Source: Synechococcus sp.
GTDB lineage: Bacteria; Cyanobacteriota; Cyanobacteriia; PCC-6307; Cyanobiaceae
Assembly: GCA_047284725.1 (NCBI GenBank)
Contig: JBJBEO010000001.1
Span: 1,720,203 to 1,784,202, forward strand
Reading direction: 5' to 3'
Length of the DNA: 64,000 nucleotides
Shown: positions 30 through 38,888 of the stretch, piece by piece
Position numbering within the stretch: the first letter of the stretch is position 1
How the letters are laid out: every line of letters begins with the position of its first letter
Translations under genes and position numbers: made by a program
Notes under the pieces: generated by a model
What the model saw: the letters and a program-made list of their open reading frames with translations, nothing else
Told to the model about the DNA's origin: nothing
The model's database searches: none

Positions 30-458
30 GGCTGCAATGCGCGATTGAACTGATTGCCCTGATCCGCGAACGCAGCAACACTGATGGCAACGAGATCGGA
101 GGCGCCGATGACGGCCGACACTCCACCCGAGCCCACACAAGAAGCACGCTGACTTTCTGGCCCCTGCTCCAACAGTTTTCACGCATTCGAGAGGGATTTG
201 CCCATCGGCAGGCACTGCATTCGGCTTCGCCACGTCGATCGGCCCTCCATCCGCACCGCCCGAGGTGCCCTAAGGAGTCACGTCACCCTCCCACCTAGGA
301 ACCTGGCCCCAGGCGCCAGAGCCAGTCGCTTCGATCCCTTCTCTTTTCAGTCCCTTTGCTTGAGGTTGCACAACCCAACGGCAACACTGAAAGTCGATCG
401 ATCGTGATGAACAAACGAGCGAGATAGGCCGCCTTGTCCATCGGGGGAAGACGGCCTC
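30..458 (-). ncRNA. Putative large structured ncRNA, diverged copy 1 (strand inferred)
   Basis: Colinear blocks shared with 63234-63677: GCAATGCGC, CGAGATCGGAGGCGC, GCCGACACTCCACC, CTGGCCCCTGCTCCAACAGTTT, GCAGGCACTG, GCACCGCCC, TGGCCCCAGG, AACGAGCGAG.TAGGCCG. Indels between copies break any common reading frame; one covarying hairpin. Confidence 0.65.
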
Positions 459-483
459 ACCACATCAGCCCAACGCTGATGGC

Positions 484-548: not shown

Positions 549-764
549 TCAGTTGTATTCGCCGGGTGTTTCCTGCTTTGACACGGTGACCCGGCCCACC
601 TTCTGCCCCGAGAAGCGCAGCAATTCATCGCCGGAGAACTCATAGCCCAGGCCTGCAGCGATCTTGGCGACATCGTCGGCGGTGGACGCCGCCAACACGG
701 TCTGCTTGATCGACGCATCGTCTTGCATGCGCACGAGGAAGGCCTTCAACTGATCCAGAGCCAT
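549..764 (-). CDS. Nif11-like leader-peptide family protein
   Basis: MALDQLKAFL...DDVAKIAAGLGYEFSGDEL is a typical Nif11/ProcA leader pattern; Cys-free tail ending PGEYN. Confidence 0.85.
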   Translation of the reverse strand: MALDQLKAFLVRMQDDASIKQTVLAASTADDVAKIAAGLGYEFSGDELLRFSGQKVGRVTVSKQETPGEYN

Positions 765-1503
765 CAAAGGGAATGCAGCGTTCGCTAAGGCAGCGGACCA
801 CCATCATCGAGCCAAACGGATTTTGATCGAAGCCGGCCGCAAAGCGCAGGCCAAAGCATGGAACGGGCGATGAGAGCCCTCAACAATCAGGGTTCCCATG
901 GGTTGGGCGTGGGCAAGATCGAGCTTCATGGTGCGTTGGCAGAGCAGGCTTCAATCACCTGCAACTTCCATCAGTTTCCTCCTGTCATCCCCCCGCTGAC
1001 GACTCCCCATCCGGGGACACTTTGCTCAGACCGCCTTAGCGTGATCAGTAAGGATGAGCTCAATCACACCACATCAAGCGAGGAGCCGCTGAAACACTTC
1101 CAAACAGTGAAATGCCTTCTCAAACCAGGGGGTGACCAGCGGCCATGAACAGTGGCCCTCCCGATCAGGAGAATGCCGCCGAAGCTGCGCGGCCATACAA
1201 CCACTTCAACGCTTCGATCGGCCCGAGGTGAAGAGATCGGCATTTCGGTATCGCTTCCTGCTCGATGGTGGAGCGGAAATGACGATCACCATTGTTTCTT
1301 CAGTCAAGAGGTCATGCAGGAGCGAATGAAAGCCGCAGGCACCTGCAACTTGAACGGGATCATGCCCAGTTTCAGCGCTGCGGGGTCGAGCAGTTCTGTG
1401 CGCAGTACTGACGAGTGATCGATGGAGTGATCGATGCCCAGCCACCCTTTGCCCTGATCTCAGCGCAGTGCTGACAGAGTGCTGCCACAACCTCTTCAAC
1501 ACC

Positions 1504-4763: not shown

Positions 4764-5129
4764 ATGGCTGCGATCCGTCTGCTGGAGCTGCTGATCCTGC
4801 TGGCGATGCTGAGCGGCTTCCTCGGGTTGCTGCTGCATCGCAACCTGTTTCTGAAGGTGCTCTCCATGGATGTACTGGGCAGTGCCGTGGTGGCGCTGTT
4901 CGTTCTGGTGGCTGCTCGCACCGGACTACGCAGTCCGATCCTGTCGACCCCTGACGCCGGCACCGCCTTGTCGGCGATCTTTCTCAACAGCACCGCCGAT
5001 GCCATCCCGCAGGCGGTGATTCTCACCGCGATCGTGATCGGCCTCTCGATTCAGGCCCTGCTGCTGGTGGTGATCAGCCGCCTGGCCCGCTTCGACCCCG
5101 TGCTGGACGTGCGCAGTTTCGAGCAATGA
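4764..5129 (+). CDS. mrpC: Mrp Na+/H+ antiporter subunit C
   Basis: ADAIPQAVILTAIVIG motif; hydrophobic helices. Confidence 0.9.
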   Translation: MAAIRLLELLILLAMLSGFLGLLLHRNLFLKVLSMDVLGSAVVALFVLVAARTGLRSPILSTPDAGTALSAIFLNSTADAIPQAVILTAIVIGLSIQALLLVVISRLARFDPVLDVRSFEQ

Positions 5130-6610
5130 ACGCCCTGCTCACTCCAGCGGTGCTGATCAGCTGGTTGCTGGCGCCCTATCTGGTGGCCTTTCTCGGTGCC
5201 CTGCTGCCGGCCCTTGGGGAAGTCCCCTTCCTGCTGTGTTGCCTGGCCACTGGCCTGATCGGGGCCCATGGCCTGATCGATGGCGACGTGCGCACCCTGA
5301 TGCTGCTGGGGGACCACGGAGTGATGTTGCAGTTCGACCCGATCGCCGCCTGGTTCCTGCTTCTGAACGCCCTGGTGATGATGGCGGTACGCCTCGACCA
5401 GTGGCGCGATCCAGGACGCTGTTCTCCCCTGCTGCCGGCGGTGCTGCTGGGGGGGCTCAACACCTGCTTCGTGGTGAGCGATCTGATCAGCCTGTACGTG
5501 GCCCTCGAGGTGGTGGGCATTGCGGCGTTTCTCCTGATCCAGCGGGATGGCTCGCAACGGATGCTGTGGATCGGTCTGCGCTACCTGCTGATCAGCAACA
5601 CAGCGATGACGCTTTATCTCGTGGGTGCGGGTCTGGCCTATGCCGTGACCGGCAGCTTCCGCTTCAGCTCCCTGACGGCCTTGCCTCTGGGCGCGGCGGA
5701 AGTGCTGCTGCTGCTGGGGCTGATCACCAAAGCAGGCCTGTTCCTGCCCGGACTGTGGCTCCCCCGCAGCCACGCGGAGGCGCCGTCGGACGTCTCAGCA
5801 CTGCTGTCAGGGGTGGTGGTCACCGGTGGGGCTGCCCCCCTTCTGCATCTGGCTGCAGTGGACGCCTCCCTGCTGCCGCTGCTGCGCATGGTCGGACTCG
5901 GCAGCACGGTGTTCGGAATCGGGCAGGCCCTGGCGGCCGCAGATCTGAAACGGCTTCTGGCCTGGAGCACGGTGTCGCAGATGGGGCTGGTGGTGCTGTC
6001 GCCCATGACGGGCGGCGCGGTGGCCCTGGCCCATGGGCTCGCCAAGGCACCGCTGTTCCTGATGGCAGGCCGCATCCAGCAACGCCAACTGCGGGGCTGG
6101 CAGGACCGGAGTCTGCCCTTGAGCCTGCAACTGCCGCTCTGGATCGGCTCGCTGTCGATCGCCGGTGCTCCTCTGCTGGCGGGCTTCAGCGCCAAGAAAG
6201 AACTCGATGCCACCCTGCCGGCGTTCTGGGCCGCAGCCGCCATGCTCTCCGGCATCGGCAGCGTGGCGCTCTTCGCCCGGATCTGGGGGGCGCCAGTGCA
6301 GACCGGCGACAGCAACCATCGTTCACAGCTGGGCAACGGCCTGCCGCTGGGCAGCAGCCTGTTGCTGGTGGTGGTCGTGGGTGGTGGCCTGCTGGGCGCG
6401 GCCAGAGGCCTGCTCACACCGCTCGACCTGCTGACGACGGCCCTGCTGTTCGCCGCGGGGCTCGGCCTCCACCTGCTGCTGCAACGACCGCGACAGACGA
6501 TCGCCGAACGGATCCCCCAGCTGGAATCCCTGCAGGATCTGATCGGCAACATCGCCGTGGTGGGAGCGGCCCTGCTGCTGGCGGTGAACCTGATGGAGGC
6601 CCGGGGATGA
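5126..6610 (+). CDS. mrpD: Mrp antiporter subunit D
   Basis: LYVALE, KAGLF..LWLPRSHAEAPSDVSALLSG, DLKRLLAWSTVSQMG, HGLAKAPLF. Confidence 0.9.
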   Translation: MNALLTPAVLISWLLAPYLVAFLGALLPALGEVPFLLCCLATGLIGAHGLIDGDVRTLMLLGDHGVMLQFDPIAAWFLLLNALVMMAVRLDQWRDPGRCSPLLPAVLLGGLNTCFVVSDLISLYVALEVVGIAAFLLIQRDGSQRMLWIGLRYLLISNTAMTLYLVGAGLAYAVTGSFRFSSLTALPLGAAEVLLLLGLITKAGLFLPGLWLPRSHAEAPSDVSALLSGVVVTGGAAPLLHLAAVDASLLPLLRMVGLGSTVFGIGQALAAADLKRLLAWSTVSQMGLVVLSPMTGGAVALAHGLAKAPLFLMAGRIQQRQLRGWQDRSLPLSLQLPLWIGSLSIAGAPLLAGFSAKKELDATLPAFWAAAAMLSGIGSVALFARIWGAPVQTGDSNHRSQLGNGLPLGSSLLLVVVVGGGLLGAARGLLTPLDLLTTALLFAAGLGLHLLLQRPRQTIAERIPQLESLQDLIGNIAVVGAALLLAVNLMEARG

Positions 6611-7041
6611 CGCTCCTGCTCAGCACCAGCTTCCGACTTCTGCTCTGGGTGTTCCTCACCGGGGATCTGCGGCTGCTCAACCTGGTGATCGGACTCGGCG
6701 TGGCCCTGCTGCTGCCCCGTGACACCCACGTCCGAGAACCGCTGATGCCGTTTCTGCGGGCTCTGGGGAGCAGCCTGGTCGCCATTCCCACTGCCTATGG
6801 CGAGGCCCTGGCGCTGATCGTCGCCAATGGCCGGGAACAGGTCGACTGCACCCAGAAACAGATCAGCGCCCACGCCAGCTCCCGGGTGGTGTTTCTGGAG
6901 CTGCTGGCGATCACGATCACCCCATTCACGCTGGTGCTGGATCTGCATCGCATCCACCCCGCCCAGCCCGACAGTCCGATGAGCTTCCGCATTCATCGTC
7001 TGCAGCCCAAGGCCAGACCGCAGATGGGGAGGGAGGACTGA
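6607..7041 (+). CDS. mrpE: Mrp antiporter subunit E
   Basis: LLLWVFLTGD...NLVIGL; ITITPFTLV motif; ATGA overlap with mrpD. Confidence 0.8.
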   Translation: MTLLLSTSFRLLLWVFLTGDLRLLNLVIGLGVALLLPRDTHVREPLMPFLRALGSSLVAIPTAYGEALALIVANGREQVDCTQKQISAHASSRVVFLELLAITITPFTLVLDLHRIHPAQPDSPMSFRIHRLQPKARPQMGRED

Positions 7042-7289
7042 TGACCTTGATCAGCTGGGGGATGGTGCTGGCGCTGATGCTTCCCATCGCGTTGCTCTGC
7101 CGGCAATGCAGCACCTGGGAGCGGCTGGCCGCGTTTGGCAGCATCAGCACCAAAGTGGCGCTGCTGGCGTTGATGGTCGCGGTGATGCGCGGGGATCGGA
7201 TGCTGGCCCTGGTGGGCACGCTGATGATCAGCGCCGGGGATGCGGGAATGCTGCTGCTGGCACGGCTGCTGGAGGAGCACGAACGATGA
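7041..7289 (+). CDS. mrpF: Mrp antiporter subunit F
   Basis: Small hydrophobic protein, WERLAAF; operon position. Confidence 0.75.
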   Translation: MTLISWGMVLALMLPIALLCRQCSTWERLAAFGSISTKVALLALMVAVMRGDRMLALVGTLMISAGDAGMLLLARLLEEHER

Positions 7290-7573
7290 CGACCGCTGGC
7301 AACGAAGGGCTGAGCTTGATGCTGCTGGGCAGCGGACTGCTGCTCTGGTTCTGGGGCAGCTGGCCCCTGCTGGAACGGCAGTCGTTGCTGGTGAGGCTGC
7401 ACAAACTCACCGTGGCCGACTCCCTCGGCTCCCTGCTGATGATGGTCGGGCTGCTGATGCGCCGCCCCGACTGGTGGCCCCTGCTCAGCCTGGCGATCCT
7501 GGGGCTGCTGCTGTGGAGCACGATCTTCGGCTACGTGGTGGCGGCAGGGGTTCACCGCCGTCCGGGAGCCTGA
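7286..7573 (+). CDS. mrpG: Mrp antiporter subunit G
   Basis: RLHKLTVADSLGS motif. Confidence 0.85.
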   Translation: MTTAGNEGLSLMLLGSGLLLWFWGSWPLLERQSLLVRLHKLTVADSLGSLLMMVGLLMRRPDWWPLLSLAILGLLLWSTIFGYVVAAGVHRRPGA

Positions 7574-7577
7574 GGCG

Positions 7578-8165
7578 ATGACGATGCCCACGAATCCGGC
7601 GCTGTTCGATCTCGATGGCTCGCTGGGGTTGCTGTTGCCGATCGGAGCCCTGCTGCCTCTGGTGGGCGTGCTGATGGTGAGCCAGACCAATCCCTATCAA
7701 ACGCTGATGCTCCGCGGCGTGTTCGGCTCAGTGGCGACCCTGCTGTATGTGCTGCTGGGCGCCCCGGATGTGGCGCTCACCGAAGCGATGGTGGGCACCC
7801 TGCTCTCCACGACCCTCTACGTGATCGCCCTGCGCTCATCGATGACGTTGCGCCTGGAGGATCGACGCAGCTGGCAGATGTCGACAAGCGCCGATGCTGC
7901 CGACTGCACGGACCCCGATCTGGACCACCTCAGTCGCTGGCTGCAGCCTCTGCATCTGCGGCTGCGCTTGGTGCGCGACGGCGAAGCCCCCCATGGCTGG
8001 CTCGACGATGAACGGCATCTGGTGATTCGCCATCCCCATCTGGAACAGCATCTGAGGGATCAACCCGGCCACCAGCACTGGGTGGAGCAGGGCGGCAGTC
8101 TGCGGCTGAGCCCGGACGCCCGGAGCCCAGCCGCAGGTGCGGCGGCGGAGGCGGTGGGGCCATGA
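7578..8165 (+). CDS. DUF4040/MrpB-related antiporter subunit
   Basis: LGAPDVALTEAMVGT motif. Confidence 0.85.
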   Translation: MTMPTNPALFDLDGSLGLLLPIGALLPLVGVLMVSQTNPYQTLMLRGVFGSVATLLYVLLGAPDVALTEAMVGTLLSTTLYVIALRSSMTLRLEDRRSWQMSTSADAADCTDPDLDHLSRWLQPLHLRLRLVRDGEAPHGWLDDERHLVIRHPHLEQHLRDQPGHQHWVEQGGSLRLSPDARSPAAGAAAEAVGP

Positions 8166-8821
8166 CCTGGCTGTATGTGCTGGCAAGCGTGGTGCTGTTC
8201 GCAGCGCCGCTGGCGGGCCCCTTGGCCCAGACCTCCGGCATGGCCCCGGTGATGCAGGCCCTGGCGGAGCAGACCGGCGTGCCCAATCTCGTGTCGGGCG
8301 TGATCCTGGAGACCCGTCTGTTCGACACCATCGGCGAGGTGGTGGTTTTCACCCTGGCCTCGATCGGCGTGCGTCAGCTGTTCAGCGATGAAACGAAGCG
8401 CCACAGCATCCGCAGCCTCACCGACCTGCCCTCACGGGTGGTCTGTGAACAGGTCGCCACAATTTCATCGCTGGTGGCGGTGGAGATGGCACTGCGCGGC
8501 CACCTCAGCCCCGGCGGTGGCTTCGCTGCCGGCGTGGCCGGCGGCACGGCGATCGGCCTGGTGCTGATCAGTGGCGGCAGCCGCTTCACCGCCAAGCTGC
8601 ACAAACGCTGGCATGCCGACCGCTGGGAGAAGGCCGCCGTGCTGGGCTTCGTGCTGTTGGCGTTGCTCTCTCTGGAGGGAATCGCCCCTGGACTGGGACG
8701 TTTCGGTGAGCTGCTCAGTGGCGGCTGGATTCCGCTGCTCAACCTGCTGGTGGCCCTGAAGGTGACCCTTGGCTCCTGGGCCATGGTGCAGCGCTTCATC
8801 CAATACCGCGGTCTGCTGTAG
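8162..8821 (+). CDS. mrpB: Mrp antiporter subunit B
   Basis: RLFDTIGEV and GHLSPGGGFAAG motifs. Confidence 0.9.
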   Translation: MTWLYVLASVVLFAAPLAGPLAQTSGMAPVMQALAEQTGVPNLVSGVILETRLFDTIGEVVVFTLASIGVRQLFSDETKRHSIRSLTDLPSRVVCEQVATISSLVAVEMALRGHLSPGGGFAAGVAGGTAIGLVLISGGSRFTAKLHKRWHADRWEKAAVLGFVLLALLSLEGIAPGLGRFGELLSGGWIPLLNLLVALKVTLGSWAMVQRFIQYRGLL

Positions 8822-8829: not shown

Positions 8830-9660
8830 ATGCGCCTGCCGATCGAACAGCTCGCGGTCTTCGCCGAGGCCCCGTTTGAAGGCAACCCCGCAGCGGTCTG
8901 TTCGCTGCAGGCCTGGCTGCCGGATCGGGTGATGCAGGCGATTGCAGCGGAAAACAACCTGTCCGAAACAGCCTTCACCGTGCAGGAAGGCGACGGCTAC
9001 GGCCTGCGCTGGTTCACCCCGAGCTGTGAAGTCGACCTGTGCGGCCACGCCACCCTGGCGGCCTCACAGGTGGTGTTTGCTCAGGCACCCGAGCGAACCC
9101 TGCTGCGCTTCCAGACCCGAAGTGGTGAGCTGCGGGTGGACCGCGATCGTGACGGGCTGAGGCTGAGCTGTCCAGCCCAAGCGATGACGCCCTGCGTGGT
9201 GCCGGAGGGCTTGGTGGAAGCCCTCGGGGCCACACCCGAGCATTGCCTGATCGGCATGGATCTGATGGCGGTCTTTGCCTCAGAAGACTGCATCCAGGCG
9301 CTGATGCCGTCGATGGAAGCGCTGGCCGCCATGCCCGGCCGGGGCGTGATCGTCACCGCCCCCGGCCGCCGCGTGGATGTGGTGAGCCGCTTCTTCGCAC
9401 CGGGGATCGGCATCCCGGAAGACCCGGTCACAGGATCAGCCCACTGCAGCCTGGCGCCCTACTGGGCCCATCGACTGGGGCGGTCGAAGCTGGAAGCGCG
9501 ACAACTGTCAAAGCGGGGTGGCCGTCTGCGCTGCGAGCTGCAGGGTGAAAACGTGCTGATCAGCGGTCGCGTGCAGCCTTTTCTGAAAGGAGAGTTGATC
9601 CTCCCCTCCTCAACCTTCAGACGGATTCGTTCTCGAATGAATGCTCCATCAGCGCCCTGA
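8830..9660 (+). CDS. PhzF family isomerase
   Basis: GNPAAV, NLSETAF, EVDLCGHATLA, EDPVTGSAH. Confidence 0.92.
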   Translation: MRLPIEQLAVFAEAPFEGNPAAVCSLQAWLPDRVMQAIAAENNLSETAFTVQEGDGYGLRWFTPSCEVDLCGHATLAASQVVFAQAPERTLLRFQTRSGELRVDRDRDGLRLSCPAQAMTPCVVPEGLVEALGATPEHCLIGMDLMAVFASEDCIQALMPSMEALAAMPGRGVIVTAPGRRVDVVSRFFAPGIGIPEDPVTGSAHCSLAPYWAHRLGRSKLEARQLSKRGGRLRCELQGENVLISGRVQPFLKGELILPSSTFRRIRSRMNAPSAP

Positions 9661-10239: not shown

Positions 10240-10683
10240 GAGGAAGGCCGCCTTCCCGAGTGGGAAGACGGCCTAGCTCGCTCGTTCGCGCATGGTTCAA
10301 CCCCGTCACGTCTTGGGAAAGAAGGAAAGGGGCGAAGCGTTCTGGCGTTGGCAACCCTGGGGCCATGACGTCCAGGTGTAGTGCTGATGAAGCTCCGGGG
10401 CACCTTGTCTGCATGAGCAGCGTTGGGCGGTGCAGTGGAGTGTCGATTCGCGTGGCGCACCGGATCAGTGCCTGCGAAAGGACCAGCTCTACGGATGAGT
10501 GGAAACTGTTGGAGCAGGGGCCAGAAGTCAGTCTGCTTCTTAGGTTTGCTCAGGTGGAGTGTCGGCTGTCATCAGCGCCTCCGATCTCGATGCACCTACT
10601 TTGCGCTGGCTGGGCGGGGTTGCCTATCCGTGTAAAGGCGCATTGCCTTTGCGGGCCAACCCACCGAAAGTTTGAACGGCGTG
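10240..10683 (+). ncRNA. Putative large structured ncRNA, copy 2 (strand inferred)
   Basis: 444 bp; reverse complement of 63234-63677 with one visible mismatch (10259); many hairpins; homologous to copy 1. Confidence 0.65.
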
Positions 10684-10699
10684 CCCTCAGGCACCACCA

Positions 10700-23946: not shown

Positions 23947-24130
23947 TTAGAGCAGATCGCGGAATTGCTGAGGGGTCAGGCCTGCATCGCGAGCAATAGC
24001 CCCCATGGTGATGGCATTGATCGGGTCATGCCGTGGGATCACCAATCCCGGATTCGCGCACAACGCGAAAACCCAGTTTCTGGAAGACCTGTACCGCTTC
24101 TTTCTGACTGATGCCCGGAAGCCGCGGCAT
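23947..24130 (-). pseudogene. hicA: hicA toxin with internal deletion and frameshift
   Basis: MPRLPGISQKEAVQVFQKLGFRVVRESG, then in another frame LVIPRHDPINAITMGAIARDAGLTPQQFRDLL*; the catalytic His segment is missing. Confidence 0.8.
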
Positions 24131-24327
24131 CAGACAGCCAGCTCCAGGGTCTCCACGGTTTTCACACCAGCTTCCTCCGCCTCCACCTCCAGCCAGAGCT
24201 GGATGGCCTCTCGGATGTTCGCCAGAGCCTCGTCGCGCGACTCGCCCTGGGAATGGCAACCGGGCAGATCAAGGCAACTCACCGACCACCCCTCGTCGGT
24301 TTCCAAAAGGCGTATGCGGTACGACAT
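24130..24327 (-). CDS. hicB: HicB antitoxin
   Basis: DLPGCHSQGESRDEALANIREAIQLWLE. Confidence 0.9.
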   Translation of the reverse strand: MSYRIRLLETDEGWSVSCLDLPGCHSQGESRDEALANIREAIQLWLEVEAEEAGVKTVETLELAV

Positions 24328-24646
24328 CCAGGCCCAGGCAGTGGTATCAGCCTATCGACGCTGGCAGTCAACAACCGGCGGATCCGGTTCCTCGGCAATG
24401 CCACTCACCGCCGAGGGGATTTGGAGAGAACGAAAGGCGACAAGGGTGTGGATCGTTTCCTGCACCGCGCCGCCTTTGATGCAGGCGTGAACCTGAATCG
24501 ACTGCTGGAAAATCCTGCTTTGGGTTGAGCGTCGCTCCCCCGTTGAGAACGCTCTGCTGAGAACGCTCTGCAGACCTGATCTCCCTCAAGTAAGGGATGC
24601 ACAACACCGTGGGGAAGATGCATCGTGAGGAGGCTCAACTCCTTCC

Positions 24647-25141
24647 ATGCACTTCCGCCTGATCACACCCAGCCAGCTGTCGCTGTTCAGCATCAGCCCA
24701 GTGATCGGGGCCTGGTGGGAGGAGCTGCAGGCGCAGAAGCTGTTTGACGGCAGCAAGCCAGCAGTGAGTGAGCTGGATCAGCAGCTGTTTGCTGACGGCC
24801 TGCGCCACGAGCAGGTGCTGCTCACCAAGCTGGAGAAGGCAGGCCACAGCATTGCCCGACTGCCCGGCAAACAAACCGACGCCGACTACACCGCAACCCG
24901 CCAGGCGATGGCTCAAGGGGTGGAGTTCGTCCACCAGGCCTCGCTCTGCAATGAGGAGATGCGCGGCAGTGCCGACTTGCTCAGGCCCAACCGTTTGAAC
25001 GTGACGATCAGCCGGGCTCAAAGCCTCTCGATCGTTGTGGGCTCAACAGGCCTGGCCAGCGGCGTTGCTAACACGGTGGCGGAGGCCGAGCAGATCAATC
25101 GGTTGTGCCGCGTTATGAAAGATGGGGGGCCGATGCCATGA
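24647..25141 (+). pseudogene. Internally deleted TM0106-family nuclease/SF1 helicase
   Basis: TM0106-like N-terminus (ITPSQL, GLRHE, HQASL...RGSADLL) joined in frame to helicase motif VI (NRLNVTISRAQ...VVGS). Confidence 0.75.
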
Positions 25142-26199
25142 CGCTCTGGCTGATCCGGGCGGGTTCCCATGGGGAACACGAACAGAAGTTTCTCGATGAA
25201 GGCCGTGTGTACGTCTGTTGGGACGGGCTTGATGTTGATCTCAGCAGCTTGAGTGAGCGGCAGAGCCTGATTGATCAGCTCGCCACGCGGTTTCCCGATG
25301 AGAAACCGAAGGCCTGGATGAACTGGTCATCGCAGATCTGGCCCTTCGCCCATGGGATGCAACCCGGCGACTGGGTGGTGATGCCATCGAAGCTGCAATC
25401 AGGGATTTACTTCGGAGAACTACAAAGCGACTACCACTACGAAGCCAGTGGCCCCGATCCCTACTTCCATTGGCGCTCGATCAACTGGTTCAGTGGCCTT
25501 GTGCCCCGAAGCACCTTCCCTCAAGACCTGCTGTATTCCTTCGGGGCGTTCATGACGATCTGCAGGATTCAGCGCAATGACGCAGAAGCGAGAACGAAAG
25601 CGATTGCATCTGTTGGCTGGAAGCCCGAGACCTTGGCGTCAGCAATCGCCGGATCACCAACATTCACAGCAACCACTAATGACTCGGCCACTGACGCTGA
25701 TGAAGGGAGCAACGTCGACCTAGAAGAACTGGCCGGCGATCAAATTGAGCGGCTGATCCAAGCCAAGTTCAAAGGCCACCGTTTAGCCGTGCTGGTGGAA
25801 GCCATCCTTCAAGCCGAGGGCTACACCACCTACCGCAGCCCTGAAGGGCCGGATGGCGGAGCCGACATCTTGGCCGCCCATGGCGAACTGGGGTTTGGCA
25901 ATCCCTCCATCTGCGTGGAGGTGAAATCCGGAGACACCCCTGCTGATCGGCCCATGGTGGACAAATTGATCGGGGCCGGGCAGAAATTCAGTGCCCAAAC
26001 CTGTTTGTTCGTGAGCTGGGCTGGCTTCCGCAGCAACGTGCAAAAGGAATTGGCTCGGGACTTCTTCAAGGTGCGCCTCTGGAGCCGGAAGGAATTGCTC
26101 GAGAAGCTGTTTCGCTATTACGACACCTTCCCAGAAGACATCCGGCTCGCTCTTCCCCTGAAGAAAGTCTGGATGGTGGCGGGTGATGCAGAGGAATGA
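25138..26199 (+). CDS. Mrr-family restriction endonuclease with N-terminal EVE/PUA-like region
   Basis: WLIRAG..GEHE; GPDGGADI; VEVKSG. Confidence 0.85.
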   Translation: MTLWLIRAGSHGEHEQKFLDEGRVYVCWDGLDVDLSSLSERQSLIDQLATRFPDEKPKAWMNWSSQIWPFAHGMQPGDWVVMPSKLQSGIYFGELQSDYHYEASGPDPYFHWRSINWFSGLVPRSTFPQDLLYSFGAFMTICRIQRNDAEARTKAIASVGWKPETLASAIAGSPTFTATTNDSATDADEGSNVDLEELAGDQIERLIQAKFKGHRLAVLVEAILQAEGYTTYRSPEGPDGGADILAAHGELGFGNPSICVEVKSGDTPADRPMVDKLIGAGQKFSAQTCLFVSWAGFRSNVQKELARDFFKVRLWSRKELLEKLFRYYDTFPEDIRLALPLKKVWMVAGDAEE

Positions 26200-26435
26200 T
26201 TTGTCCCTCAGTTGAGAGAAGCCCAAAGCGCTCGATCTCCCTCATTCCAGGGATGCCAGCTGCCAAAGAAACGCAGAAAATGAACCCATCGGCCTAACGG
26301 CCCCAACGCCAGCCATGCCCTTAAAAGCCTCCTGCCAACAAACCTGCCTCGTAATCCGCAGCCGCGTTGGAGCCATGGCAGTGGCATGCGCGGCTCAAGC
26401 CACACGCTCATTCAGGGGATGGAGGGAGCCCTGAG

Positions 26436-29400
26436 ATGGACAGCAACTTCACTCATATCGCCGAATACGACAAAACTCTCTTCCGCTTAAGCAGCAATGC
26501 GGAGCGCTATTTCCCCGGCGACCCCAACACGGCGCTGATCAAGCTTCGGCAATTTGGTGAGCTGTTGGCCCAGCAAGTGGCTTCACGCTTTGGGCTCTAC
26601 ACGGGCAGCGAGGAAACCCAACTCGAGCTGTTGCGCCGTTTGGAGAGCAATGGCGATCTAGAACGCGATGTGGCCGAGCTGTTCCACAACCTGCGTAAGG
26701 CAGGTAATGCCGCCACCCATCGCCTCGAAGGCGACCACAGCACGGCACTGCAAAGCCTCAAGGTTGCTTGGCAACTCAGCCTTTGGTTTCACCGCACCTT
26801 CGGCCGAGACCCGAATTACCGCAGTGGCCCTTTTCAGCCCCCACAGCCTCCTGAGGCACAGCCATCGTCAGGGGATGAAGCACTCAGGCAAGAACTGAAA
26901 GCCCTGAAGCAGGGCTACGAACAAGCGCAAGCCAATGAAGCGGCCCTGATTGAGGCACTGCAAAAGCAAGCCCAGGAGCTGACTGCATCCTTGAGCCTGC
27001 AGCAGGAGTGGGAAAACCTCGCAGAAGAAAGCGAAGCCGAAAAAGCCCAACTCGCTGAGAGCCTGTCTGCCCTGCAGATTGCGGCGAGCCAACAACCACC
27101 GATTGCTCGCAAGCAGCTCAAGCAGGCCGCCAAACAGGCCACGAGCCTCATCCAGCTCGACGAGGCTGCCACCCGAAAGCTCATCGATGCGCAACTGCGT
27201 GATGCCGGTTGGGAGTGCGACACCAAGCTGCTCACTTATGCCAAGGGCACCAGGCCAGAAGCCAACTGCAACAAGGCGATTGCTGAATGGCCCTGCAAAG
27301 GGGGCTATGCGGACTACGTGCTGTTTTTGGGGCTCACCCCAATCGCCGCCGTTGAGGCCAAACGAGCCAACAAAGATGTGGCGGGAGTGCTCCCGCAAGC
27401 CGAGCGCTACTGCGAGACCTATGTGCCCGATGACCAAGGCAACGCGGCAGCCACCGCCGACATGGGCGGACCCTTTCCAATTCCTTTTGCCTTCTCCTCC
27501 AATGGGCGCCCCTATCTGCCGCAGTTAAAAACCAAGAGCGGCATTTGGTTTCGCGACACACGCAAAGACACCAACCTCCCTAAACCTCTGGATGGCTGGT
27601 ACAGCCCAGAAGGCCTCAAACAACTGGCCCGCCAAGACAGCCAACAAGCCCATGCGCAGCTGAAACGGGAAACCTTCAACTACGGCTTCCCGATGCGCCC
27701 CTATCAACGCCAAGCGATCGAAAGCACGGAAGCTGCGATCGAAGCCGGCAAGCAGCAAGTGCTGTTGGCCATGGCAACGGGCACTGGCAAAACCAAAACC
27801 TGCATTGCCCTGATTTACCGCCTGCTCAAAACCAATCGCTTCAGGCGGGTGTTGTTCTTGGTGGATCGCTCTGAGCTGGGCAAGCAGGCTGCCGACGCGT
27901 TCAAAGAAACGCGCATGGAAAGCCTGCAACACTTCGCCGACATCTACGGCATCAAGGAGCTGAAAGAGAAAGAGGTGGAAAGTGATACGCGCGTGCACAT
28001 CGCGACGGTGCAAGCGATGGTGCAGCGGTTGATGCTGGGCCACGACGAAGAAAAGCCCAGCGTCGACACCTATGACCTAATCGTGATCGACGAGTGCCAC
28101 CGCGGTTACCTGCTGGATAGGGAGCTCAGTGAACGGGAATTGGGCTTCCGCGATTTCAATGACTACGTCTCCAAATACCGCCGTGTCATCGAGTACTTCG
28201 ATGCTGTGAGAGTGGGACTTACGGCAACGCCAGCACTCCACACGGTCGACATTTTTGGTGAGCCAGCCTTCGTTTACAGCTACCGAGAGGCTGTAGTCGA
28301 TGGGTTCTTGGTTGACCACGAACCACCGACCCTGATCAAAACCGACCTCTCCAGCGACGGGATTCATTTCGCTGCTGGTGATGAGGTGAAGGTGTTTGAT
28401 CCGAGCTCCACTGGGGTGGATCGCTTCAACACCCCTGACGCCCTCGACTTCGAAGTGGAGAGCTTCAACCGCAAGGTGATCACCGAGCCATTCAACCGTG
28501 CCGTCTGCCAGTTTTTGGCAACCGAGTTGGACCCGCAGTCACCACAGAAAACCCTGATTTTCTGTGCGACCGATGCCCATGCCGACATGGTGGTGACGCT
28601 CTTGAAAGAAGCGCTTGAGGAGCAGTACGGCAGCGTCTCCAACGACGCGGTGGCCAAGATCACAGGAGCGAGCGACAAACCTGCTGATCTGATTCGCCAC
28701 TACAAGAACGAAGCCTTCCCCAACATCGCCGTCACGGTCGATCTGCTGAGTACAGGCGTTGATGTGCCGGCAATCTGCAACATCGTGTTCCTGCGGCGGA
28801 TGAACAGCCGCATCCTTTACGACCAAATGATCGGCCGCGGCACCCGGCTGTGCGACGCGATCAACAAGACCCACTTCCGCATTTTTGATGCCGTGGGCAT
28901 CTACGAAGCACTCAAAGATTTCAGCGACATGAAGCCGGTGGTGGCGGACCCGAAGATCAGCATCAGCCAGCTGCTGGAGGAGTTCAGCCAAGAGCATGAA
29001 CCCAGCACCTTGGAGCTGATCCGCGATCAGCTGGTGGCCAAGGTTCGCCGCAAGGTCCGCAGGCTCAGCGAAGACCAAGGCGATCAGGTGCAGCAAGTGA
29101 CAGGGGTGCAGCCACTGGATTTCGTGGGGCGGCTGCTGTCGTTACCTGTGGAAGAGGCCAGCCGTTGGGTGCAACGCATGCCACGCCTGGCCGAGGTGCT
29201 GGATGCACCCACGGGCCATGGCAGTAATCCCCAGGTGATCTCCGACCATCCCGATCACTTGCGCTCCACAGAGCACGGCTACGGCAAGGGTCAAAAGCCG
29301 GAGGACTACCTCGAAGCCTTCACGGCGTTCATCAAGCAGGGCGGTAATGAACTTCCAGCGCTCAATCTGGTGCTGCAAAAACCCTGGGAACTCACCCGCT

Positions 29401-29804
29401 CCGACTTGAAAGAACTGCGGATTGCCCTCGATGCCGAGGGCTACAACGAAGCAAGCCTGCGCACGGCCTGGCGTGACACCACCAACCAAGAGCTGGTGGC
29501 GTCGATCATGGGGCACATCCGCCGAGCAGCCTTCGGTGATGCCCTCGTTCCTTATTCAGAGCGGGTGGACAAGGCTTTGCTGCGCATCTTGGCCTCACGC
29601 AGCTGGACCAGTCCGCAACGGCAATGGCTGCAACGGATCGCCAGCCAGACCAAGTCGATCACGATCGTGGATCGAGCGGCCATCGACGATCAGGGCTTGG
29701 TGTTTCGAAAAGAAGGGGGCGGTTGGCCCAGGCTGAACAAGGTGTTCAATGAGGAGCTTGGCGAGGTGCTGGAGCTGTTCCAGCGCGAGGTCTGGGCGGC
29801 CTAA
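26436..29804 (+). CDS. hsdR: Type I RM restriction subunit
   Basis: ADYVLF...VEAK nuclease; MATGTGKT; DECHRG; LTATP; QMIGRGTR. Confidence 0.95.
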   Translation: MDSNFTHIAEYDKTLFRLSSNAERYFPGDPNTALIKLRQFGELLAQQVASRFGLYTGSEETQLELLRRLESNGDLERDVAELFHNLRKAGNAATHRLEGDHSTALQSLKVAWQLSLWFHRTFGRDPNYRSGPFQPPQPPEAQPSSGDEALRQELKALKQGYEQAQANEAALIEALQKQAQELTASLSLQQEWENLAEESEAEKAQLAESLSALQIAASQQPPIARKQLKQAAKQATSLIQLDEAATRKLIDAQLRDAGWECDTKLLTYAKGTRPEANCNKAIAEWPCKGGYADYVLFLGLTPIAAVEAKRANKDVAGVLPQAERYCETYVPDDQGNAAATADMGGPFPIPFAFSSNGRPYLPQLKTKSGIWFRDTRKDTNLPKPLDGWYSPEGLKQLARQDSQQAHAQLKRETFNYGFPMRPYQRQAIESTEAAIEAGKQQVLLAMATGTGKTKTCIALIYRLLKTNRFRRVLFLVDRSELGKQAADAFKETRMESLQHFADIYGIKELKEKEVESDTRVHIATVQAMVQRLMLGHDEEKPSVDTYDLIVIDECHRGYLLDRELSERELGFRDFNDYVSKYRRVIEYFDAVRVGLTATPALHTVDIFGEPAFVYSYREAVVDGFLVDHEPPTLIKTDLSSDGIHFAAGDEVKVFDPSSTGVDRFNTPDALDFEVESFNRKVITEPFNRAVCQFLATELDPQSPQKTLIFCATDAHADMVVTLLKEALEEQYGSVSNDAVAKITGASDKPADLIRHYKNEAFPNIAVTVDLLSTGVDVPAICNIVFLRRMNSRILYDQMIGRGTRLCDAINKTHFRIFDAVGIYEALKDFSDMKPVVADPKISISQLLEEFSQEHEPSTLELIRDQLVAKVRRKVRRLSEDQGDQVQQVTGVQPLDFVGRLLSLPVEEASRWVQRMPRLAEVLDAPTGHGSNPQVISDHPDHLRSTEHGYGKGQKPEDYLEAFTAFIKQGGNELPALNLVLQKPWELTRSDLKELRIALDAEGYNEASLRTAWRDTTNQELVASIMGHIRRAAFGDALVPYSERVDKALLRILASRSWTSPQRQWLQRIASQTKSITIVDRAAIDDQGLVFRKEGGGWPRLNKVFNEELGEVLELFQREVWAA

Positions 29805-29834
29805 TCGATTTGAAGGAGAGATGAGCAAGCAACC

Positions 29835-31274
29835 ATGAGCGGCCAATCCACCACTGACATCGTTTCCAAGCTGTGGAACCTCTGCAACGTCCTGAAGGAC
29901 GACGGGGTCACCTATCACCAGTACGTCTCTGAGCTGACGTATCTGCTGTTTTTGAAGATGGCCAAGGAAACCGGCACGGAGACCGGGATTCCTGAGGAGT
30001 GGCGTTGGGATGAGCTTGAGCGGCTCAAGGGCCTCAAGCAGCTGGAGCACTACAAGCTGCTGCTGCTGGAACTTGGCAGCTCAGAGAGCGGCGCTTCGTC
30101 GTTGGTGCAGGAGATCTATGCCAACGCCAACTCGTTCGTGAAAAAGCCCGTCACGCTGAACAAGCTGGTGGAGGAAATCGACAAGCTCGATTGGTACAGC
30201 GCCAAAGAAGAGGGGTTGGGTGACCTCTACGAGGGGCTGCTGCAAAAGAACGCAGAAGAGAAGAAGTCAGGTGCAGGGCAGTACTTCACCCCACGGCCAC
30301 TGATCGATTCGATGGTGGCGGTGATGCAGCCCCAACTGGGGGATGTGATCCAAGACCCCGCTGCTGGCACCGGTGGTTTTTTGATTGCCGCGCGCAGCTG
30401 GATCGCTGAGCACCAAGACATCTATTCCCTGACTGAGGCCGAGCAACAACGCTTCTACCGGCGCACCTTCTACGGAATGGAGCACGTGCAAGACACGCAC
30501 CGCTTGGCGTTGATGAACCTGATGCTGCATGGGCTTGATTCCGCCAGCGGCGAAGGGGGCATCCGCTACGGCGACACGATGAGCAGTGATGGCGAAGGGC
30601 TGCCCAGGGCCAGCTTGATGCTGACCAACCCACCGTTTGGAACGAAAAAAGGGGGTGGACTGCCCAGCCGCACCGACTTCACTTTCCCCACCGCCAACAA
30701 GCAGTTCTGCTTCCTGCAGCACATCTACCGGGGCCTTCAACCGGGCGGACGCGCTGCTGTGGTGCTGCCTGACAACGTGTTGTTTGAAGGCAACGTGGGC
30801 CGGCAGATCAGGGAAGACCTGATGGCCAAGTGTGATCTGCACACGATCCTGCGACTGCCCACGGGCATCTTCTACGCGCAGGGCGTAAAGACCAATGTGC
30901 TGTTCTTCACCCGAGGCCAACACGATCAAGGCAACACCGATCAGGTGTGGGTCTATGACCTGCGGGCCAACATGCCTAAGTTCGGCAAGCGCACCCCACT
31001 CACTCGTAGCCACTTCAGCGAGTTTGAAGCGGCCTACGGCTCTGATCCCTACGGCAAGGCAGAGCGAACAGCAACCGGACCAGAAGGGCGTTGGCAATGC
31101 TTCAGCCGCGATGAGATTGCTGCCCGCGACTTCAGCTTGGATCTGGCTTGGCTTCGGGATGAGTCAGGGGATGACGCAGAGGATCTACCGGAGCCTGAAG
31201 TTCTCGCCCAAGAGGCAATGGATGAGCTTGAGAGCGCATTGAGTGATTTAAGAGAGCTAATCAACCAGCTATGA
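29835..31274 (+). CDS. hsdM: Type I RM N6-adenine methyltransferase
   Basis: GQYFTPR, DPAAGTGGFL, TNPPFG. Confidence 0.95.
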   Translation: MSGQSTTDIVSKLWNLCNVLKDDGVTYHQYVSELTYLLFLKMAKETGTETGIPEEWRWDELERLKGLKQLEHYKLLLLELGSSESGASSLVQEIYANANSFVKKPVTLNKLVEEIDKLDWYSAKEEGLGDLYEGLLQKNAEEKKSGAGQYFTPRPLIDSMVAVMQPQLGDVIQDPAAGTGGFLIAARSWIAEHQDIYSLTEAEQQRFYRRTFYGMEHVQDTHRLALMNLMLHGLDSASGEGGIRYGDTMSSDGEGLPRASLMLTNPPFGTKKGGGLPSRTDFTFPTANKQFCFLQHIYRGLQPGGRAAVVLPDNVLFEGNVGRQIREDLMAKCDLHTILRLPTGIFYAQGVKTNVLFFTRGQHDQGNTDQVWVYDLRANMPKFGKRTPLTRSHFSEFEAAYGSDPYGKAERTATGPEGRWQCFSRDEIAARDFSLDLAWLRDESGDDAEDLPEPEVLAQEAMDELESALSDLRELINQL

Positions 31275-32878
31275 ATACACTTGAGGACACTAGCAACCAG
31301 GAAAGAACATCACTACCAGGCGGGTGGGAAACAGTCCCACTTTTAGAGCTTGGAGACCTAATCAGAGGTGTTACATACAAGAAACAGGATGCATCAATAG
31401 AGCCATTCACTGACTCAATTCCAATCCTGCGAGCGAACAACATCCAGAATGGCAACTTAGACCAAGAAGAGCTTGTCCACATCCCCCGGAACCTAGTTTT
31501 AGATATCCAATTGATAACCAAAGGGGATATCCTCATAGCAACATCTAGCGGAAGCATAAGCGTCGTAGGCAAAGCCGCACGGGCCCAAAACGATACGAAT
31601 ACAGCATTTGGTGCATTTTGCGGCTTGATAAGACCAAGACCTGAAATCAGCTCGAGATACCTGGGCCACTACTTCGGCTCGCAAGGCTATCGCCAGAGGG
31701 CTTCGGCGATGGCAAGGGGCGTCAATATAAACAATCTCAAGAAGGCACATTTTGAGTCACTTAGCGTCAATCTCCCTCCACTCAACGAGCAACGCCGCAT
31801 CGCCGACAAGCTCGACACCACCCTTACCGCAGTTGAAGCCTGCAAGCAAAAGCTCAACAACGCCGCCGAAACGATCCAGCGATTCCGCCAATCCGTACTG
31901 GCAGCAGCCGTTTCTGGCGGGCTAACGAAGAATCAAAATCAGTTCACCGAGAAACAGATTTCAGATGTGTGCACTGTAGTCAGAGGTGCATCACCAAGGC
32001 CAGCAGGCGACCCAAGATATTTCACAGATGACCCAGAAATACCTTGGATCACAGTAGGAGAACTAACAAAGGATGAAGAGAAATACCTAGAAAGAACAAA
32101 GACATTTTTAACAGAAGAAGGAAAGGAAAGGAGCCGATTAATCAATGAGAAAACATTGCTACTGACCAATAGCGGAGCCACACTTGGAGTGCCAAAGATT
32201 ACATTGATATCAGGCTGCATCAATGACGGCTCAGTAGCCCTTGAAGGCCTAGACGAACCACTTAAATCATATCTATACTATGTACTCAAATCCAAGACGC
32301 AAGAACTAAGGAATATCAAGCAAGGCGCAGCTCAGCCAAATCTGAACACAACTATCGTAAAAAATATCCGCTTTTCATGCCCAGACGACAAGGAAGGCCA
32401 GACAGAAGCAATCAACAAAATCGAAACGCTTTTTGAGTTGGCCGACTTGATTGAAAAGCAAATTGTTCAAGCCAAATCACAAATTGATGCAATAAGGAAT
32501 TCGGTTTTAGACAAAGCCTTCCGCGGCGAGCTTGTTCCCCAAGACCCAAACGATGAGCCTGCCTCAGTACTGCTGGAACGAATCAAAGCCCTGCGCGAAA
32601 CCGAAGCAGCAGCCAAAAAAACAGCCAAGCGGGGTAGGAAGAAGAAGGCTGCAGCCGCTCAGCTCGTCATTCCAGAAGGAATTGCCGACAACCACCTCGC
32701 CAAGGTGCTTGAAGAGTGCGGAGCCTTAAGCGAGCGAGCCTTGCTTGCTGCTTCGGAGCTTGAGCCTGGGGTGTTTCAGCTGCAGCTCAGCAAGGAGCTC
32801 GGTGCCGGTGGGCTCAAGCAAGTTGATGTTGATGGCGAAGCTGCCTATGCGGATGCAAGCTGGGAGGAGGAGGGATGA
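31271..32878 (+). CDS. hsdS: Type I RM specificity subunit with C-terminal extension
   Basis: LPPLNEQRRIADKL; AFRGELVPQDPNDEPASVLLERI; AT-rich TRDs. Confidence 0.93.
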   Translation: MNTLEDTSNQERTSLPGGWETVPLLELGDLIRGVTYKKQDASIEPFTDSIPILRANNIQNGNLDQEELVHIPRNLVLDIQLITKGDILIATSSGSISVVGKAARAQNDTNTAFGAFCGLIRPRPEISSRYLGHYFGSQGYRQRASAMARGVNINNLKKAHFESLSVNLPPLNEQRRIADKLDTTLTAVEACKQKLNNAAETIQRFRQSVLAAAVSGGLTKNQNQFTEKQISDVCTVVRGASPRPAGDPRYFTDDPEIPWITVGELTKDEEKYLERTKTFLTEEGKERSRLINEKTLLLTNSGATLGVPKITLISGCINDGSVALEGLDEPLKSYLYYVLKSKTQELRNIKQGAAQPNLNTTIVKNIRFSCPDDKEGQTEAINKIETLFELADLIEKQIVQAKSQIDAIRNSVLDKAFRGELVPQDPNDEPASVLLERIKALRETEAAAKKTAKRGRKKKAAAAQLVIPEGIADNHLAKVLEECGALSERALLAASELEPGVFQLQLSKELGAGGLKQVDVDGEAAYADASWEEEG

Positions 32879-33816: not shown

Positions 33817-33822
33817 TGAAAA

Positions 33823-34095
33823 TCACTCCCCCGCCTGAATCTCCCGCACCACCTCATCGATCTGATCGCTCAGATCGATTTCTCCGTTCTGCCCCGCCAG
33901 CTCCGCAAAACGGCGCCCCTACGGCAACAACCGGCTCTGCGCTGATCCCACGGCTGCATTAAAGCTCTTGTTCAAGCGAGTGATGTTGTTGCCGATGACG
34001 TTGAACTTATCGATTAAGGTTGAGAAGCGCTTGTGCAGCTCCACCGTCTGCGCCTGAAATTCATCGATGTTTTTGGCGATCTCCACCTGATCGAT
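33823..34095 (-). pseudogene. rmuC: RmuC C-terminal remnant
   Basis: ELHKRF...FNAAVGSAQSRLLP*GRRFAEL with in-frame TAG at 33919-33921; 5' part absent. Confidence 0.7.
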
Positions 34096-34415
34096 CGGCA
34101 TGGTGAAATCGACTGGGATCATGAAGCGCTCAGAAGTGGCGATCGGAACCACACAATCAATAGATAGATGCGATCAAAACAGCAACAATCACCTACAAGA
34201 AATGGTTCAACTTGATCTCGAGACGGAGTTCTTAGCCAAGCCAAAATACAAAGTGCTTAGAAGCTTCTCCAGACCGCATAACCATCCATGGGAGAAGTGG
34301 CAATCCGCCGGAATCCTTGCTAAGAATGGAGTGCTGCTTTAGAGGCAGCAAGCCATTGGCAGCTTATGCAGCAAAAGATCATCTTGCCGCAGCTTCTGCA
34401 GACCGCCTAAATACT

Positions 34416-36788: not shown

Positions 36789-36792
36789 ACCG
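36721..36792 (+). mobile_element. attC: attC site
   Basis: ATCTAAC...TTGCTgCACtCGGAAAaATTA / TAATTTTCCGGTGAGCAA...GCGTTA: imperfect inverted repeat with unpaired extra bases, RYYYAAC...GTT ends, starting 3 bp after the KAP stop. Confidence 0.85.
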
Positions 36793-37722: not shown

Positions 37723-37775
37723 GACCAGACCAGGCCTCTCGATTCACCCTTAGCAAGCTGCCTGAGAGACCACAC

Positions 37776-38777: not shown

Positions 38778-38888
38778 CATTCGGGGGAGATGCGATGCAT
38801 GCCAGATCCCTGAACTGGACGTGGCGTGATGGCCTGGCAAGCAACAATCTGAATGAACTGATGAGCGACAACACCGCCTGGACGACCT

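Follow-up and report, generated by a model that had tools for sequence, protein, structure and literature searches.

Three copies of a small RNA gene in the window

The DNA analyzed here (the window) is a stretch of 64,000 nt from Synechococcus sp. (assembly GCA_047284725.1, contig JBJBEO010000001.1, positions 1,720,203 to 1,784,202 of the forward strand). Our subject is an element that an initial annotation, made from the sequence letters, had found three times in this window and had described as a multicopy, large structured RNA; the evidence points to a family of small RNA genes that in all probability corresponds to Yfr103 of marine picocyanobacteria. A search of the 64,000 nt with a hidden Markov model (HMM) of the family (nhmmer) gave exactly three matches, the number originally claimed, and every detail that had been listed for the copies was found in place. 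The copies are as follows:

Copy 1: 30 to 458, plus strand; HMM match 32 to 458 (E=3.9e-85)
Copy 2: 10240 to 10686, minus strand; HMM match 10691 to 10232 (E=1.6e-115)
Copy 3: 63231 to 63677, plus strand; HMM match 63222 to 63684 (E=5.2e-114)

Copies 2 and 3 were recovered by a repeat finder as the arms of an inverted pair (10240 to 10686 and 63231 to 63677) with a spacing of 52,544 nt, a relationship that the initial annotation had not mentioned. They share 445 of 447 bases and differ at 63233 and, in the terminator loop, at 63658; immediately outside the block of identity the flanks show no relationship. This block extends from the upstream promoter block to the terminator tail, and these are also the limits of homology within the family. 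Copy 1 is more distant: it has 271 bases identical to copy 3 across the 352–374-nt RNA part (approx. 75%), with many indels of 1–2 nt. The simplest reading of the near-identity of copies 2 and 3 is gene conversion or recent duplication between paralogues. Near-identical neighbouring copies occur elsewhere too, since Prochlorococcus MIT 0707 carries two inverted copies 1.65 kb apart.

Distribution of the family

Homologues were collected by scanning one genome per species with an 18-mer, the longest block common to copies 1 and 3. The scan gave at least 116 loci; 106 of the 116 listed match copy 3 by blastn, most of them over their full length (approx. 420–480 nt), and the other ten are chance matches in unrelated bacteria. 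Part of the sequence constancy of the 18-mer within the family is artefactual, because the loci were found with it. Among the matches listed, the hosts include the marine or brackish Synechococcus strains WH7803 (locus L003), RCC307 (L030), WH 8017, MIT S9451, S9452, S9503, S9507 and UW140, as well as Cyanobium, Vulcanococcus, and low-light Prochlorococcus, with strains MIT 0707 (L023) and MIT 0603 (L056) as well as single-cell genomes; no high-light Prochlorococcus is named among them. Several genomes contain 3–5 or more loci (at least four each in MIT S9507 and MIT S9451, at least five in UW140). The 18-mer scan, blastn and the HMM reveal a family that is widespread and multicopy in picocyanobacteria.

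Full-length copies were also observed on bins labelled Salipiger (L004, L028, L067, L089), Planktophila (L019), Asaia (L115), Flavobacteriia (L111) and proteobacterium (L065). The contigs bearing these non-cyanobacterial labels are probably mis-binned contigs of Synechococcus or Cyanobium. In MIT 0707, at least 14 tandem ATCAGGC heptamers lie directly upstream of the copy at 5152–4843.

The covariance models of Rfam 15 (including Cyano-1, Cyano-2, 6S, tmRNA, RNase P, HEARO and the group II intron) gave no match at gathering score anywhere in the window, and at permissive E values of up to 1–10 only noise was returned for copies 1 and 3 (E>1) and eight relatives. The comparison with Rfam that had been advised thus yielded no family for the window copies or their relatives. 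A tRNA/tmRNA scan of the window was negative, and a full-text literature search for the sequence of the element or for its peptide strings found none.

Promoter and transcript

Positions were compared in an alignment of 63 sequences (411 columns), built from 64 non-redundant ones after a degenerate copy (L069:8011-8385) had been dropped; copy 2 is represented in it by copy 3. The RNA of approx. 445 nt that was originally proposed resolves into two parts, of which the second, approx. 350 nt, stands as RNA, while the first, approx. 95 nt, is promoter DNA. The corresponding features are:

Copy 3, 63231 to 63269, plus strand: upstream block, approx. −95 to −57 from the predicted start
Copy 3, 63270 to 63295, plus strand: imperfect palindrome, approx. 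−56 to −31 (consensus GCAAT-N14-ATTGC, degenerate in this copy), a putative transcription-factor site
Copy 3, 63314 to 63319, plus strand: −10 box CAAAGT (family pattern nAnAnT)
Copy 3, 63326 to 63677, plus strand: predicted transcript of Yfr103 type (352 nt), beginning at the invariant A and running through the terminator tail
Copy 3, 63643 to 63677, plus strand: intrinsic terminator, a 13-bp stem (63643 to 63672) followed by the tail UCCUC
Copy 2 (10240 to 10686), 10648 to 10686, minus strand: upstream block
Copy 2, 10647 to 10622, minus strand: palindrome
Copy 2, 10591, minus strand: predicted start
Copy 2, 10572 to 10540, minus strand: mini reading frame (mini-ORF)
Copy 2, 10274 to 10245, minus strand: terminator
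Copy 1, 33 to 58, plus strand: promoter palindrome TGCAATGCGCGATTGAACTGATTGCC, the upstream block being cut by the window start
Copy 1, 77 to 82, plus strand: −10 box AACACT
Copy 1, 89 to 462, plus strand: predicted transcript of approx. 370 nt, with a Shine-Dalgarno (SD) sequence at 98 to 102 and a terminator hairpin at 426 to 457

Three positions are the same in all 63 sequences, namely an A (column 62) and a T (column 66) of the −10 box and an A in column 73, the last of which is also kept in 67 of 67 members. Their spacing is exactly that of a −11 A, a −7 T and a +1 purine, with the +1 A lying 7 nt after the −10 T, and transcription is predicted to start at this invariant A. Counted from it, the palindrome arms GCAAT and ATTGC lie at approx. 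−55 to −32 in the alignment. The arms are complementary at their successive positions in 51/63, 47/63, 27/61, 62/63 and 61/63 sequences, and an inner pair is complementary in 63/63. The GC-GCATT-GC motif that had been taken for a conserved RNA loop is a real sequence; it is one half of this palindrome and is situated upstream of the predicted start, so it is not a loop of the RNA.

The block of approx. 40 nt further upstream (consensus ..GGCACGCC..TTTCCACTATCGG..) is kept in the Synechococcus copies and is absent from the Prochlorococcus copies. It holds a second −10-like sequence (CACTAT/CACAAT) and could be either another promoter or an additional site for a regulator. At the other end of the gene, the terminal AGGCCG...CGGCCT hairpin pointed out in the initial annotation is present in all three copies, and the terminator hairpin of copy 2, identical to that of copy 3, was called by a terminator scan.

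Each copy is very probably a complete gene of the Yfr103 family, whose RNA measures some 320–350 nt, and is independently transcribed from its own promoter. What weighs against the predicted start is that it depends on a −10 pattern which a consensus promoter scan did not call: the sigma-70 scan reported no promoter at any of the copies, and the −10 box was found only through its invariance in the family.

Conserved RNA structure

Helices were proposed by RNAalifold, and more pairs were added by a mutual-information scan. The former gave a long-range closing helix P1 (GAAGC/GCUUC plus CUG/CAG), inside which P3 and P4 lie, a helix P2 (GGCC/GGCC), a small hairpin, P3 and P4, and the latter added a hairpin around the start codon of the mini-ORF and a three-pair helix (columns 182–184/346–348). 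The main structural elements and sequence boxes of copy 3 are located at:

63378 to 63382 with 63579 to 63583, plus strand: P1, GAAGC with GCUUC, 99.4% of cells paired
63386 to 63388 with 63573 to 63575, plus strand: P1, CUG with CAG, 97.4% of cells paired
63395 to 63398 with 63553 to 63556, plus strand: P2, GGCC with GGCC, nearly invariant
63435 to 63474, plus strand: hairpin P3 (63435 to 63443 with 63466 to 63474), strongest covariation
63484 to 63517, plus strand: hairpin P4, GCACC (63484 to 63488) with GGUGC (63513 to 63517), 100% of cells paired, C-G changed to U-G in 11/63
63497 to 63508, plus strand: inserted hairpin CUGC-UCAU-GCAG in the P4 loop of copies 2 and 3
63353 to 63363, plus strand: first occurrence of the box CGACACUCCAC, over the codons D-T-P-P
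63472 to 63482, plus strand: second occurrence of the box CGACACUCCAC, non-coding

The 37 proposed pairs form standard pairs in 96.2% of cells, compared with 92.0% in shuffles. Changes on both sides were found at 15 of the 37 pairs (108 cells), a count reached by 0 of 500 shuffles and by none of the controls slid by 1–3 columns (at most 24 cells), although these margins are inflated because the structure came from the same alignment. The strongest signal is that of P3, in which 7 of 7 pairs changed on both sides and compensatory differences separate copy 1 from copy 3. The double change that the initial annotation had noticed between GCCG-ATGA-CGGC (104 to 115) and GCTG-ATGA-CAGC (63341 to 63352) is present as well; it lies in the start-codon hairpin, and family-wide this pair is C-G in 45 of the 63 sequences, U-A in 14, U-G in one and unpaired in three, so that it covaries.

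The additional hairpin CTGC-ATGA-GCAG (10409 to 10420, corresponding to 63497 to 63508 in copy 3) is present in copies 2 and 3 and absent from copy 1, as had been described. An insertion at this spot of the P4 loop occurs in 5 of the 63 aligned rows, and three other lineages carry different insertions there, a pattern typical of variable stem extensions. The recurrence of GTGGAGTGTCG at 10435 and 10554 was likewise correctly observed; both occurrences of the box are conserved in the family, and on the RNA strand they read CGACACTCCAC at 63472 and 63353. In all there are three CUCC sites, formed by the two CGACNCUCCAC boxes and by CUGCUCCAAC, and GGAG is able to pair with any of the three.

The strand had been assigned correctly (plus for copies 1 and 3), because the G-U pairs of the alignment (U-G in 25/63 at columns 198–268 and in 11/63 at columns 291–322) would be A-C mismatches on the other strand.

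Apart from the inflated margins, two observations detract from the structural evidence. P1, P2 and the small CUG/CAG hairpin are uninformative because they hardly vary, and sequences folded singly surpass shuffles by a modest margin: the z-score of the minimum free energy is −2.88 for copy 3, and the values for copy 1 (−0.47) and for the relative L072 (−1.04) are unremarkable. The original claim of a large structured RNA family in several copies is supported by the covariation in the 63-sequence alignment.

A short reading frame at the 5′ end

The initial annotation had called the element non-coding, with indels that break any shared frame. This holds for long frames: none is common to the 67 distinct full-length members, in which the longest stop-free stretches vary in frame and position. 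A long protein-coding reading was rejected, since the frames of 169 and 219 aa that cross copies 2 and 3 are without a match in Pfam and are not kept in the 67 relatives. It does not hold for the 5′ end of the RNA, where a frame of 13–14 codons with its own SD sequence is conserved, and the label 'non-coding' may be too strong. In the window this frame is represented by:

Copy 3, 63335 to 63339, plus strand: SD sequence GGAGG, 5 nt before the ATG, able to pair with CUCC inside the mini-ORF
Copy 3, 63345 to 63377, plus strand: mini-ORF encoding MTADTPPEQT, cut to 10 codons by a TAA (family norm 14 codons, with the TGA at 63387 to 63389)
Copy 1, 108 to 152, plus strand: mini-ORF encoding MTADTPPEPTQEAR followed by a stop codon, full length

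The family consensus is M-T-A-D-T-P-P-...-E-A-D, with an invariant GGAGG 5–8 nt before the start codon. The D-T-P-P anchor was detected in 114 of 123 family hits, and 113 of these 114 have an in-frame ATG or TTG at most four codons upstream, the exception being a degenerate copy. Among 90 distinct nucleotide versions, the start codon is ATG in 85 and TTG in five; 72 versions have 14 codons and nine have 13. In Prochlorococcus and some other lineages, precisely one codon is missing from the stretch that separates the ATG from the Asp codon. The SD sequence can pair with CUCC in nearly every member (columns 86–111 in 63/63, 87–110 in 58/63 and 88–109 in 57/63).

Changes within the frame were reconstructed by parsimony on a tree of the remaining RNA, using 112 of 113 sequences (one containing N was dropped). 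The D-T-P-P codons accumulated 12, 4 and 41 changes at the first, second and third positions, respectively, and 40 synonymous versus 13 non-synonymous changes, the expected synonymous share being 28% (p about 8e-13). Among the non-synonymous replacements are those of D by N or E and of T by S. Two features of this region reflect constraint at the level of the RNA, namely the third base of the first Pro codon, which is invariant, and the conserved GAAGC.

Three findings speak against a coding function of this frame. Codons 8–11 and 14 show 36 synonymous and 170 non-synonymous changes (17.5% against 17.8% expected), and there is no protein-level constraint on them; 9 of the 90 distinct mini-ORFs, including those of copies 2 and 3, stop after 7–10 codons; and the three-base periodicity rests mainly on three variable sites. 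Read-through of the stop codon was considered and rejected: T-run indels of 1–2 nt follow directly after the TGA, so nothing downstream is coding. On balance, the odds that the mini-ORF is translated appear even to us, and if translation is real, what counts would be translation as such or just the N-terminal motif.

The same data bear on the possibility that the primary product is the peptide of 13–14 residues (M-T-A-D-T-P-P-E-Q-x-x-E-A-D), in which case the gene would be a small mRNA with a structured 3′ part for stability. The invariant GGAGG with an in-frame start in 113 of 114 hits, the synonymous bias of D-T-P-P and the in-frame difference of a single codon in Prochlorococcus would all fit such a gene. 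However, the most conserved and covarying parts of the RNA come after the stop codon, the frame is neutral in its C-terminal half, a tenth of the distinct versions (9/90) are truncated and indels of 1–2 T occur right after the stop. We regard a peptide gene as unlikely.

Relationship to Yfr103

The family described above resembles Yfr103, an RNA on which Voigt et al. 2014 is reportedly a cited source. According to Hou et al. 2016 (PMC5069720), Synechococcus CC9605 has seven Yfr103 paralogues of 290–328 nt, which contributed 55.2% of the reads of this strain in a Red Sea metatranscriptome; no other transcript of these cells is reported to be as abundant, and the authors describe the function of the RNA as enigmatic. 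Homologues are given for Synechococcus strains WH8109, WH7803, CC9311, WH8102, RCC307, CC9902 and KORDI strains and for Prochlorococcus SS120, NATL1A/2A and MIT9303/9313, together with a strongly conserved structure and an imperfect palindrome that spans −29 to −58 relative to the mapped start (PMC5069720). The start sites and ends in Table S2 of the same source give lengths of 291, 292 and 326 nt, and other work cited in it describes a response of Yfr103 to shifts of light and temperature in MIT9313.

The family analyzed here shows the same traits: occurrence in marine Synechococcus and in low-light Prochlorococcus, multiple diverged paralogues within single Synechococcus genomes, a stand-alone gene without fixed neighbours, a conserved structure, and a palindrome at the same position relative to the start, which in our case is inferred. 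Measured from that inferred start to the terminator stem, 67 members are 292–395 nt long (median 322), and 47 of the 67 fall within 292–328 nt. Two loci, L054 (4870–5157) and L092, in UW140 and MIT S9451, lack the whole P3 hairpin and keep the rest, with a predicted RNA of 292 nt. This P3-less class matches the 291/292-nt paralogues of CC9605, and its natural loss of P3 suggests that this hairpin is dispensable. Because taxon range, paralogy, palindrome position and, with the predicted start, length class all coincide, it is highly likely that the element family is Yfr103, a match made by descriptors, the published loci having been compared by description.

Two points stand on the other side. 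The proposed identity draws on published descriptions and not on a base-by-base comparison with the CC9605 or MIT9313 loci, and the window copies (352 and approx. 370 nt) are longer than the published 290–328 nt.

The comparison by description also leaves some room for a structured RNA family that is distinct from Yfr103, shares its distribution and size, and would hence be undescribed. In view of the coincidence of taxa, paralogy, length (both the 291/292-nt and the approx. 320-nt classes) and palindrome position, we consider this improbable; two multicopy RNAs of 300 nt with the same range would be surprising. Identity with Yfr103 remains the preferred reading.

The surmise of the initial annotation that the element might overlap a known picocyanobacterial motif was therefore right as regards a Yfr RNA, in that the element fits the description of Yfr103 in PMC5069720, and wrong as regards Cyano-2 or any other Rfam family. 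Cyano-2 (Rfam RF01702) resembles the present family as a Synechococcus-restricted candidate RNA, but gave no match on copies 1 and 3 even at E values of up to 10. Yfr2–Yfr5 (Cyano-1) are likewise multicopy picocyanobacterial small RNAs at unlinked loci; they differ in sequence and are only approx. 90 nt long. 6S RNA and the CsrB-type sponges are comparable in being very abundant, structured and stand-alone and in having repeated short motifs, but the present family has no sequence or structural match to Rfam models.

With respect to the mini-ORF, the nearest parallels are dual-function RNAs, such as RNAIII/hld of Staphylococcus aureus and SgrS/SgrT of Escherichia coli, long structured regulatory RNAs that also contain a short frame. 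Both are cited as dual-function RNAs in PMC2518516, which also describes Prochlorococcus Yfr6 with a frame of 33 aa. In contrast to all three, the frame found here is far shorter (13–14 codons), constraint appears limited to its N-terminal D-T-P-P, and its translation is a prediction. The available part of PMC5069720 describes no reading frame in Yfr103, whereas the family analyzed here has a conserved mini-ORF, which is possibly a new point on this RNA.

An earlier sighting may be cluster 9 of Axmann et al. 2005, a predicted and untested candidate with one copy in SS120, one in MIT9313, four in WH8102 and none in MED4, for which Table 1 gives an alignment length of 397 and the comment 'no conserved position' (PMC1242208). 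That cluster 9 was the first sighting of the Yfr103 family is a plausible guess from this table line. In the available parts of three later sources, a study of 202 cyanobacterial genomes (NAR 2026, PMC12873609), Kopf & Hess 2015 (PMC6596454) and Lott et al. 2020 (PMC7368042), the RNA is not mentioned.

Since the Yfr103 family, its paralogy and its abundance are already in print, the novelty of the element is largely removed, and the finding amounts to the rediscovery of a known but unexplained RNA. Yfr103 has no Rfam model, and annotation pipelines and readers working from sequence will keep rediscovering it. The 63-sequence alignment with its covariation-supported helices, the promoter anatomy that fits the published palindrome and the testable mini-ORF hypothesis could serve as an Rfam seed and guide experiments.

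Genomic context of the copies

The initial annotation had also considered a ribozyme-like or mobile RNA, and nothing points that way. As a DNA element, a mobile or recombinogenic repeat (a MITE, an IS200/IS605 derivative or a decayed TnpA-REP), whose conservation would reflect spread rather than RNA function, could account for the multiple copies, for their often island-like, variable surroundings and for the near-identity of copies 2 and 3. Moreover, copy 1 faces a Nif11-domain gene, an arrangement known for tnpA-REP fragments, which have been reported to face prochlorosin genes (bioRxiv 10.1101/2020.03.09.984088). Nevertheless, such an origin is very improbable. The borders of copies 2 and 3 show neither terminal inverted repeats nor target duplications, there is no transposase domain among the 78 ORFs of the window, and Pfam gave no match at E≤0.001 for the ORFs that overlap the copies on either strand (a sensitive comparison with picocyanobacterial TnpA-REP was not made). 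Paralogues within a genome have diverged (approx. 75% identity) and yet keep their helices by compensatory change, and blastn in 'distant' mode found no similar sequence in phage and plasmid collections. Finally, the family persists in the streamlined genome of MIT 0603 (L056, 4532–4603), where the RNA gene lies between infB and tRNA-Thr(CGU) and ends in a clear terminator of its own, which speaks for a gene that is being maintained and against junk.

A cis-acting leader (a leader-peptide attenuator or riboswitch) of a downstream gene, although suggested by the layout of SD sequence, short ORF, alternative pairings of GGAG with several CUCC sites, and terminator, has an equally slight probability, because no downstream gene recurs (the largest cluster of flanking proteins occurs at 9 of approx. 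100 loci, on either side and either strand) and because, in the window, copies 1 and 2 converge with their neighbouring genes. Adjacency to tRNA genes was also examined as a general trait and rejected, as a tRNA lies within a few hundred bases at 2 of 30 loci.

Possible mode of action of Yfr103

The features described above can be combined into a provisional scheme for Yfr103. A predicted transcription factor bound to the palindrome would set the very high output of the gene. The product would function as RNA, and the most likely role is that of a regulator or sponge present in large amounts; GGAG-type ribosome-binding sites, or else a protein, could be bound by its exposed C-rich CUCC boxes. 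The 5′ mini-ORF might also be engaged by ribosomes, for which we see about equal chances either way. With the SD sequence sequestered by CUCC within the mini-ORF, and with the last codons and the stop codon lying in the closing helix, a ribosome would open the core, so that translation and folding would exclude each other, as in a translation-coupled switch.

The composite proposal, in which Yfr103 is ribosome-engaged via a frame whose D-T-P-P is under protein-level selection, and in which translation, possibly slowed at Pro-Pro, and the folded RNA are mutually exclusive, is put forward tentatively and may well prove wrong. If it is true, the activity or stability of Yfr103 would be coupled to the translational status of the cell.

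Surroundings of the copies in the window

Tail-to-tail with copy 1 lies a gene for a Nif11-domain protein of 72 aa (549 to 767, minus strand; Pfam E 2.4e-15); precursors of prochlorosin-type peptides carry leaders of this kind. The two genes are separated by a strong hairpin, GC-rich and with a T-run, at 487 to 530.

For the window itself, the practical value of the analysis is the correct annotation of three small-RNA genes and the recognition that the near-identical inverted pair brackets a mosaic region of 52.5 kb. The GC content of this segment ranges from 0.46 to 0.71, and it contains a restriction/defence cluster. The 447-bp inverted repeat formed by copies 2 and 3 could mediate inversion of the segment; the GC-skew profile gave no clear inversion signal between them. 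The defence-type cluster occupies 24000 to 42700 and comprises:

25105 to 26199 and 32875 to 33816: Mrr-family nucleases
26367 to 29804: hsdR of a type I restriction system
29835 to 31274: hsdM
31271 to 32878: hsdS
34441 to 36717: KAP-family NTPase
36787 to 37593: HNH nuclease
37776 to 38360: HNH-HIT protein
41768 to 42652: DUF429 protein

The drop of GC to 0.46 at 32–38 kb suggests acquired DNA. Some 10 kb from this low-GC island, the region 46000 to 53300 has a GC content of 0.71 and carries genes for a gamma-glutamyltranspeptidase, an iron alcohol dehydrogenase, an alpha/beta hydrolase and a cytochrome P450. Between copies 1 and 2, a cluster for a multisubunit cation/proton antiporter of the Mrp/Mnh type (Proton_antipo_M, MnhG, MbhD and MnhB domains) extends from 5126 to 8821 and is followed by a PhzF-family gene at 8830 to 9660.

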